Source: Escherichia coli O127:H6 str. E2348/69 (GTDB lineage Bacteria > Pseudomonadota > Gammaproteobacteria > Enterobacterales > Enterobacteriaceae). Taken from it: 64,000 bases of DNA. Within the stretch, counting starts at the first letter, position 1. Each line of letters starts with the position of its first letter. Of this stretch, positions 41,268 to 42,885 are shown in pieces. The notes beneath the pieces are model-generated. The model did no database searches. It was given only the letters and a program-made list of their open reading frames with translations, and had not been told where the DNA came from. The DNA is taken from the NCBI RefSeq assembly GCF_000026545.1, contig NC_011601.1, one strand, 5' to 3'. A program made the translations under genes and the position numbers.

Positions 41268-41830
41268 AGCAAGCGAACATCCACGGCGTCCATGCCTGCT
41301 GCACGGGCCGCCTGAATACCGAAATCGGCATCTTCAAAGACCACACACTGCGTCGGTTGCACGCCCATACGCTGCGCGCACAACAAAAATGTGTCTGGCG
41401 CGGGTTTATGGTGTTTGACGTGATCGGCAGCGACGACGGCGTCAAAATAACGGCGTAATCCCAGGTGTGCCAGCAATGCCTCAGCGATGGCGCTTTCACT
41501 CCCCGTTCCTACAGCCATTGGGCGACGACCATGCCAGCTTTTCACCACTTCAACAAGAGGAAGCGGCTCGACACTATCCAGCAGCATACTTCTTACTGCT
41601 TCTGTTTTTTCACGCGCTAACGCATGCGGGTCGAGATCGGCCTGATTCAGCTCAATAATCGCCTGAGCAATACGCCAGGTGGGCGAGCCATTAAGCGCAA
41701 TCATCGCCTGAACATCGTACTGAAGACCGTAGTGCCCTAATACTTCGCGCCACGCTTTACGGTGCGTAGGCTCGGTATCCAGGATGGTGCCATCCATATC
41801 AAAAATTAAACCTGCATAACGCTCGTACAT
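41264..41830 (-). CDS. yqaB: HAD-superfamily sugar phosphatase YqaB
   Basis: 188-aa protein with N-terminal DxDGT motif (LIFDMDGTILDT). Confidence 0.9.
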   Translation of the reverse strand: MYERYAGLIFDMDGTILDTEPTHRKAWREVLGHYGLQYDVQAMIALNGSPTWRIAQAIIELNQADLDPHALAREKTEAVRSMLLDSVEPLPLVEVVKSWHGRRPMAVGTGSESAIAEALLAHLGLRRYFDAVVAADHVKHHKPAPDTFLLCAQRMGVQPTQCVVFEDADFGIQAARAAGMDAVDVRLL

Positions 41831-41977
41831 GGTCTTCTCGCAAGTCGAAAAATATGACGCTACTTTAGCGTAATTGCTTGATTTTGTCGCTGATGGCGAA
41901 GGAGAAGAAAATTCAGGAAATGGATAAAGTAGTTATTTAGAAATGAGATATTTTTGAAGGAAATTTTTTGGAGAATA

Positions 41978-42054
41978 TGGTGCATCCGGGAGGATTCGAA
42001 CCTCCGACCGCTCGGTTCGTAGCCGAGTACTCTATCCAGCTGAGCTACGGATGC
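41978..42054 (-). tRNA. tRNA-Arg (anticodon ACG), copy 1
   Basis: Reverse complement gives GCATCCGTAGCTCAGCTGGATAGAGTACTCGGCTACGAACCGAGCGGTCGGAGGTTCGAATCCTCCCGGATGCACCA with encoded CCA. Confidence 0.95.
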
Positions 42055-42117
42055 ATCGGGAAAATTTATTTTACTACTGATATTGATATCGCTACTAAAG
42101 CCATATCAAGTAAGAGA

Positions 42118-42194
42118 TGGTGCATCCGGGAGGATTCGAACCTCCGACCGCTCGGTTCGTAGCCGAGTACTCTATCCAGCTGAGCTACGGATGC
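42118..42194 (-). tRNA. tRNA-Arg (anticodon ACG), copy 2
   Basis: Identical to copy 1; 140-bp repeat unit. Confidence 0.95.
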
Positions 42195-42257
42195 ATCGGG
42201 AAAATTTATTTTACTACTGATATTGATATCGCTACTAAAGCCATATCAAGTAAGAGA

Positions 42258-42334
42258 TGGTGCATCCGGGAGGATTCGAACCTCCGACCGCTCGGTTCGT
42301 AGCCGAGTACTCTATCCAGCTGAGCTACGGATGC
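42258..42334 (-). tRNA. tRNA-Arg (anticodon ACG), copy 3
   Basis: Identical to copy 1. Confidence 0.95.
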
Positions 42335-42397
42335 ATCGGGAAAATTTATTTTACTACTGATATTGATATCGCTACTAAAGCCATATCAAGTAAGAGA

Positions 42398-42474
42398 TGG
42401 TGCATCCGGGAGGATTCGAACCTCCGACCGCTCGGTTCGTAGCCGAGTACTCTATCCAGCTGAGCTACGGATGC
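42398..42474 (-). tRNA. tRNA-Arg (anticodon ACG), copy 4
   Basis: Identical to copy 1. Confidence 0.95.
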
Positions 42475-42477
42475 AAA

Positions 42478-42570
42478 TGGCGGTGAGGCGGGGATTCGAA
42501 CCCCGGATGCAGCTTTTGACCGCATACTCCCTTAGCAGGGGAGCGCCTTCAGCCTCTCGGCCACCTCACC
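42478..42570 (-). tRNA. serV: tRNA-Ser (anticodon GCU)
   Basis: Reverse complement gives GGTGAGGTGGCCGAGAGGCTGAAGGCGCTCCCCTGCTAAGGGAGTATGCGGTCAAAAGCTGCATCCGGGGTTCGAATCCCCGCCTCACCGCCA (long variable arm). Confidence 0.93.
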
Positions 42571-42885
42571 ACACGCCTCTTACGAGTGCTTCGAAGAACT
42601 TGTTTATCGCTCATCGTCGCTGCGTGGCGCACATATTACTTTCTGAGACTTATAAGTCAAACAATTTTTCCCACACTTTTATCGTTTGCACACTTCACGC
42701 TCAATTAGTCTGTAAAAACGTCAAAAAGAGTGTTTTATCAACAGAAAAACGGAGGTCTGACAGATAGCAGTAATGCAAAAAAATGGAGACTTAAGTTGAA
42801 TGAACGGGAGTAAAGCGAAAAGACAATGGAGTGAAAGAGAAATTTTGAGGGTGCGTCTCACCGATAAAGATGAGACGCGGAAAGA

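Follow-up and report, generated by a model that had tools for sequence, protein, structure and literature searches.

The tRNA genes at positions 41978-42570 of the 64,000-nucleotide stretch of E. coli O127:H6 strain E2348/69 that was analysed (hereafter, the window) form an array in which not only the genes but also the spacers between them are identical. How could such a uniform array arise, and is it a general property of the species or a peculiarity of one lineage? We compared the locus with other E. coli genomes and with loci of related species. The reading that we favour, to which we give a probability of about 0.93, is that of a known operon whose 140-bp array was homogenised by recent, lineage-specific unequal exchange, and which lost a terminal element in a separate deletion. 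The operon, its genes and the E2348/69 genome are already published and annotated, and no new kind of system is involved.

Identity and gene content of the locus

Exactly five tRNA genes, all on the minus strand, were found in the window with ARAGORN, which placed the anticodons at position 35 (acg four times, gct once). With the Rfam tRNA model RF00005, each of the four tRNA-Arg genes scored 67.1 bits and the tRNA-Ser gene 56.8 bits, all five of them exceeding the gathering score of 29 bits. As transcribed, the locus starts with serV (42478-42570), a 93-nt class II tRNA-Ser(GCU) gene that has a long variable arm and does not differ in sequence from the K-12 copy. A junction of 3 nt (42475-42477), UUU in the transcript, separates it from the first of four tRNA-Arg(ACG) genes of 77 nt. 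By position, these correspond to argV (42398-42474), argY (42258-42334), argZ (42118-42194) and argQ (41978-42054); all five genes are also annotated in RefSeq. The 3' CCA is encoded in the genome for tRNA-Arg as well as tRNA-Ser, the ends reading CACCA or GCCA as in E. coli tRNA genes. The original prediction, which had announced four tRNA-Arg(ACG) genes and one tRNA-Ser(GCU) gene in this interval, was right as to gene identities, anticodons and coordinates. Beyond the last tRNA-Arg gene lies a trailer of 147 nt of unique sequence.

Over the region, the match to E. coli O127:H6 strain E2348/69 is 100%, and in this strain the locus is flanked by csrA upstream (in the sense of transcription) and yqaB downstream. 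The same flanks are annotated in RefSeq for K-12 JM83, whose locus contains exact string matches to the mature tRNA-Arg and tRNA-Ser. By its position, gene order and sequence, we identify the locus as the serV-argV-argY-argZ-argQ tRNA operon of the E. coli chromosome, here in an EPEC strain. This operon is called serV-argVYZQ in the literature (PMC13170351), and argQ, argV, argY and argZ are the four tRNA-Arg2 loci (PMC3378859). A reading of the locus as an integration hotspot or mobile element was dropped, the flanks being the conserved csrA and yqaB genes and an integrase being absent.

A perfect 140-bp repeat

Tandem Repeats Finder reported a repeat at 41977-42475 with a period of 140, 3.6 copies, 100% matches, 0% indels and a score of 998. 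A perfect repeat of 499 bp is far beyond chance. String comparison established that the four 77-nt genes are mutually identical, and that the three 63-nt spacers are as well. All three belong to a variant designated s1: spacer 1 (42335-42397, minus strand), in which a hairpin (42364-42388) is followed by an A/U-rich tract; spacer 2 (42195-42257, minus strand); and spacer 3 (42055-42117, minus strand), which occupies the native position of the s1 type. The predicted 140-bp periodicity is therefore exact; the spacers, announced as four identical 63-bp stretches, are indeed identical, but number three. Once misaligned, the array of E2348/69 offers up to 357 bp of uninterrupted homology, compared to 77 bp in K-12.

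Spacer variants among E. coli strains

Spacer architecture was compared over 15 parsed E. coli loci. The short spacers of E. coli proved to be position-specific: those after copies 1, 2 and 3 are of a 64-nt, a 62-nt and a 63-nt type, respectively. Three different spacers were likewise present in all 47 of the four-copy loci of related species, and identical spacers in none of them. The s1 variant equals the position-3 spacer, s6, with one private C to T change (CAGCAG to CAGTAG). This change is present in all three spacers of E2348/69, that is, a derived substitution has become common to every spacer.

Five B2-type strains with near-identical flanks display different stages of uniformity. N1420 carries spacers s7, s8 and s6; S88 carries s14, s1 and s1; SCU-108 and DETEC-S589 carry s1 at all three positions. 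In these four strains, a terminal RtT-like element (see below) is present; E2348/69 has the s1, s1, s1 arrangement and the terminal element is absent. On the basis of its spacers, we take S88 to be an intermediate toward the all-s1 array. A search for s1 in first position, which catches contracted arrays by construction, yielded arrays made of s1 only with four copies in DETEC-S589, three in GN04275 and two in HS13-1, with identical flanks and common alaS and yqaA alleles. This series may be read as contraction or as re-expansion. All-s1 arrays were found in about 7 of 5,426 genomes; the whole locus was matched in one piece at 100% in three of the 5,426, all of them E2348/69 or its derivatives. 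The alaS and yqaA alleles of E2348/69 differ from those of the DETEC-S589 group, so the all-s1 array may have one or more origins.

A perfect 140-bp period is what unequal homologous exchange between identical 77-bp tRNA genes would yield. Units would be lost and re-duplicated, or converted, until s1 fills all three positions; we infer the order and direction of these events from the arrays of the strains compared. The original prediction had proposed recent unequal crossing-over or ongoing concerted evolution. The S88 intermediate and the s1 series argue for a recent event, and this part of the proposal can be retained, but not that of a continuous homogenisation across the species. Units are more alike within a genome than at the same position across genomes in E2348/69, SCU-108 and DETEC-S589, but this is the case neither in E. 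coli generally nor in the 47 four-copy species loci. Given the position-specific spacers of E. coli and of these 47 loci, we conclude that homogenisation is rare, lineage-specific and recent.

Copy number and gene dosage

Comparing copy number among strains, as had been suggested along with the prediction, showed that about four is the norm. In 5,425 complete E. coli genomes, a single-gene query counted 21,500 copies of the 77-nt tRNA-Arg gene (mean 3.96, median 4, range 1-9). Loci were counted with a flanks-only query; BLAST coverage with repeat-containing queries miscounts copies, offset pieces being joined. In 60 genomes sampled at even intervals, the flanks-only query gave four copies in 58, five in one and three in one. 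Among the 74 species loci with enough flank, four copies were found in 47, three in 12, two in seven, one in five, and five in three, and the junction between serV and tRNA-Arg is kept across Enterobacteriaceae and Erwiniaceae. The prevalence of four copies, both in genomes and in species loci, leads us to regard this number as an old, maintained state, around which gains and losses are still occurring. The four tandem copies of tRNA-Arg2 would serve gene dosage: deletion of argY, argZ and argQ was reported to lower tRNA-Arg2 16.1-fold, and duplication of the operon to raise it 2.4-fold (PMC13170351).

Some individual cases were recorded during these counts. XL10-Gold (NZ_CP081008.1) has the tRNA-Arg(ACG) gene at six places, one of which, a two-piece match at 4656236-4656535 of this genome (H215), is surrounded by 'hypothetical protein' annotations and lies elsewhere than at the csrA-yqaB locus. 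In KTa005 (L143, 3180-5066), an IS1, itself split by an IS3-family element, sits in the trailer between the last tRNA-Arg gene and yqaB; this is the one interrupted locus, and its four-copy, K-12-type array is otherwise intact. Such a simple insertion likewise speaks against reading the locus as a hotspot or mobile element. Many drafts among the species loci (L016-L135) break a few to about 100 bp from a tRNA-Arg copy. Contigs frequently end at the array, and copy counts from short-read drafts are therefore unreliable.

Alternative explanations

A perfect four-copy array might result from repeat collapse, expansion or consensus polishing during assembly, the more so as the repeat is hard for short-read assemblers and many drafts of related species stop inside it. 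However, the same 1601-bp sequence is present in three separately produced complete assemblies, those of E2348/69, its 'variety 2' and the derived EPEC1 strain, and the array with three s1 spacers recurs in the unrelated strains SCU-108 and DETEC-S589. At only some 500 bp, it is moreover within easy reach of Sanger or long reads. We hold an artefact to be extremely unlikely; the caveat of a miscalled copy number, raised with the original prediction, is largely answered by the four copies of the three assemblies. Another reading is that the repeated 61-aa ORFs encode a real small protein. The ORF list contains, on the plus strand, a 64-aa frame (41968-42162) and two identical 61-aa frames (42117-42302 and 42257-42442), the 64-aa frame being a TTG-extended version of the 61-aa one, and 45-aa frames are repeated in another frame. 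ATG starts and exact repetition are what a real small protein would be expected to have. Yet the 64-aa and 61-aa frames are antisense to the tRNA genes, and the 61-aa frames cross from one unit to the next for the sole reason that 140 is not divisible by 3, and are altered or gone in strains with other spacers; a Pfam search with the 61-aa and 45-aa frames gave no family at E <= 1, and no CDS is annotated in RefSeq at the 64-aa and 61-aa frames. The chance of a real protein is close to nil, and the early view that the array generates identical, spurious 61-aa ORFs was borne out.

Two further explanations accept the array as real and differ in how s1 spread. In one, non-reciprocal gene conversion between units made the spacers uniform, with copy number at four throughout and no loss or re-duplication of units. 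This fits a stepwise replacement, since S88 (s14, s1, s1) and SCU-108 (s1, s1, s1) are both four-copy, as well as the strong preference of the population for four copies. On the other hand, all-s1 arrays with two and three copies exist beside identical flanks, and the two-, three- and five-copy arrays found elsewhere demonstrate that copy number does change at the serV-argVYZQ locus. We regard this explanation as possible, if rather doubtful. The end-state sequences would fit unequal crossing-over or gene conversion, and as gene conversion and unit loss with re-duplication are not mutually exclusive, both could have operated together. In the other explanation, s1 spread by selection rather than neutral recombination, being functionally better, for example through a hairpin involved in processing. 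Each s1 spacer does contain a hairpin 9 nt past the CCA, with a fold of -11.6 kcal/mol (z = -2.1 compared to shuffles), and none of the 17 spacer variants has lost this hairpin (paired cells, 99.3%, compared to 24 to 66% for slid controls). One pair occurs as U-G, C-G and U-A; however, the shuffle control for covariation was not significant (176 of 500 and 112 of 500), and no pair was altered on both sides in the 17 variants. The hairpin is thus conserved, as a putative structured element. Furthermore, the hairpin does not include the private C to T change of s1, which falls in the A/U-rich tract, and the rarity of all-s1 arrays (about 7 of 5,426 genomes) is unlike a sweep. Selection for s1 is accordingly very unlikely, and recent unequal exchange in one lineage is the reading that we retain for the array.

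RtT-like elements and the terminal deletion

In K-12, the spacers measure 198, 62 and 198 nt, and argQ is followed by 133 nt more. The additional sequence is an element of about 134 nt, which closes by repeating the final 18 nt of tRNA-Arg. The three elements of the K-12 JM83 locus (L002; 2479-2604, 2752-2879 and 3167-3277, minus strand) match the RtT model RF00391 over its full length with 31, 29.2 and 22.8 bits, all below the gathering score of 45. An arg-operon element and rttR of MG1655 share about 80% identity over about 120 nt (alignment score 82 to 89, compared to 28 +/- 6 for shuffles). Between 0 and 4 RtT-like elements were present per locus among the 15 E. coli loci that were parsed. 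A search with RF00391 of positions 41700-42800 of the window gave no match at E <= 1, and the E2348/69 locus does not belong to the RtT family.

In SCU-108, S88 and N1420, the 133-bp terminal element lies between two copies of a perfect 26-bp direct repeat, ATCCTCCCGGATGCACCATATTCTCC, in which TATTCTCC comes after 18 nt from the 3' end of the tRNA. A sole copy of this repeat remains in E2348/69 (41970-41995, minus strand). The comparison shows that E2348/69 lost its terminal RtT-like element by a precise 133-bp short-homology deletion between the 26-bp direct repeats. The deletion is an event separate from the homogenisation of the spacers.

Several other observations concern these elements. 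The RtT-like element always ends in the 3' end of its own host tRNA, Arg here and Tyr at tyrT, which suggests that the repeat propagated along with the tRNA 3' end. A 102-nt hybrid spacer follows copy 3 in O157:H7 9234 (L006) and 405 (L012); its first 40 nt or so are RtT-like and are followed by short-spacer sequence, so that it looks like the remnant of an internal deletion of an RtT-like element. The tyrT-tyrV locus is itself polymorphic: in SK1144 (L141, 1501-1703), two tRNA-Tyr genes lie 33 nt apart, with no rtT and with desaturase genes directly downstream; in MG1655 (L142, 1267-1501), rttR and tpr follow tyrV.

At the gathering threshold, Rfam detected tRNAs only in the window and in the K-12 and R8 loci. 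A permissive search brought up plastid UTR families (Plastid-ycf2, 33.4 bits against 65.7, and Plastid-psbl-rps4) and HPnc0260, antisense to the tRNA genes and all far below their cut-offs, and these matches were considered as noise. Those to the plastid UTR families (41980-42474 and 42481-42535, plus strand) are exactly antisense to the tRNA genes; these families probably contain antisense tRNA sequence.

Transcription signals and processing

A consensus scan called one promoter-like site, upstream of serV, and no such site within the array; downstream, it called one terminator-like site, a weak one. The promoter-like site, TTGACT, 16 nt, TAATAT (42633-42660, minus strand; 9 of 12 matches), is followed by a G+C-rich discriminator, GTGCGCC, and lies some 60 nt ahead of serV. 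Over the 120 nt that precede serV, the eight strains compared are identical except for one SNP farther upstream. The terminator-like site is a hairpin, ACGCTAAAGTAGCGT, followed by CATATTTTTC (41857-41871, minus strand), 107 nt past the last tRNA gene and 27 nt before the start codon of yqaB. It is weak, with six pairs of which three are G-C, and it is a candidate terminator of the operon. The hairpin is intact in E2348/69 and K-12, and a G to A change breaks one of its pairs in S88, SCU-108 and N1420. The 133-bp deletion is therefore not the only difference between E2348/69 and its nearest all-s1 relatives. Directly past the csrA stop codon, a further 8-bp G+C-rich hairpin was observed (GCGTCTCA...TGAGACGC; 42853-42878, minus strand), which the scan left uncalled for want of a T-rich tail. 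This hairpin is a probable csrA terminator that would part csrA transcription from the promoter of the tRNA operon.

Judging from these consensus motifs and from what is known of K-12, a single sigma-70 promoter upstream of serV most likely drives one polycistronic precursor. The precursor would be cut by RNase E in the A/U-rich spacers, the 5' ends would be matured by RNase P, and the 3' ends trimmed to the encoded CCA by RNase T/PH; A34 of tRNA-Arg2 would then be edited to inosine by TadA. The RNase E, RNase P, RNase T/PH and TadA steps are established knowledge of tRNA maturation in E. coli, and once A34 is inosine, the main arginine codons CGU, CGC and CGA are read by tRNA-Arg2 alone. The output of the operon would thus be tRNA-Ser(GCU) and four doses of tRNA-Arg2.

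Significance of the array

As a discovery, the array carries little weight, tandem tRNA genes being a textbook substrate for unequal recombination. It does provide a worked example of a tRNA array homogenised stepwise while copy number was held near four, in an operon whose spacer content (0 to 4 RtT-like elements) is highly polymorphic, far more variable than its tRNA count. It is also of practical concern for annotation and assembly pipelines, as the array gives spurious antisense ORFs and breaks many short-read assemblies.

A bolder proposal, which we consider improbable, is that E2348/69, a natural 'clean' allele of serV-argVYZQ devoid of every RtT-like element, shows the effect either of losing these elements or of an array whose copy number is unusually changeable. 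If RtT-like elements affected precursor processing, tRNA-Arg2 output or the pool of regulatory RNA, E2348/69 would be a natural experiment on the role of RtT. If the homogenised array changed its copy number unusually often, the dose of tRNA-Arg2, and through it TadA editing, would vary within a population. In either case, the strain would lend itself, just as it is, to the study of plasticity in tRNA dosage.

Comparison with known systems

The serV-argVYZQ operon of K-12 is the closest point of comparison. Position, gene order, strand, mature tRNAs, the 3-nt junction between serV and argV, and the promoter-like upstream region are alike. The two differ in that E2348/69 has three identical 63-nt spacers in place of the 198, 62 and 198 nt of K-12, and none of the three RtT-like elements of the latter.

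The tyrT-tyrV operon, with its 178-bp rtT repeats (rttR / RtT RNA, RF00391), is another tandem tRNA operon that has repeats in its spacers and trailer, and these repeats end in a copy of the 3' end of the host tRNA, as do the arg-operon elements of other strains. It differs from the present case in that the E2348/69 window is devoid of any rtT element, and the arg-operon copies of K-12 are sub-threshold. A passage of PMC7542023, citing Bosl and Kersten (1991), gives the function of RtT as unknown.

With tandem arrays that undergo unequal recombination, such as rRNA operons and tandem tRNA genes, the locus shares the gain and loss of copies among close relatives, the presence of a derived mutation in all units, and recombination between direct repeats. 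Duplication and deletion are listed as main routes by which bacterial tRNA gene sets change (PMC7661048). In the experimental duplications of Pseudomonas fluorescens, segments of tens to hundreds of kb were involved (PMC7661048, PMC10954465), whereas the events considered here concern units of 140 bp.
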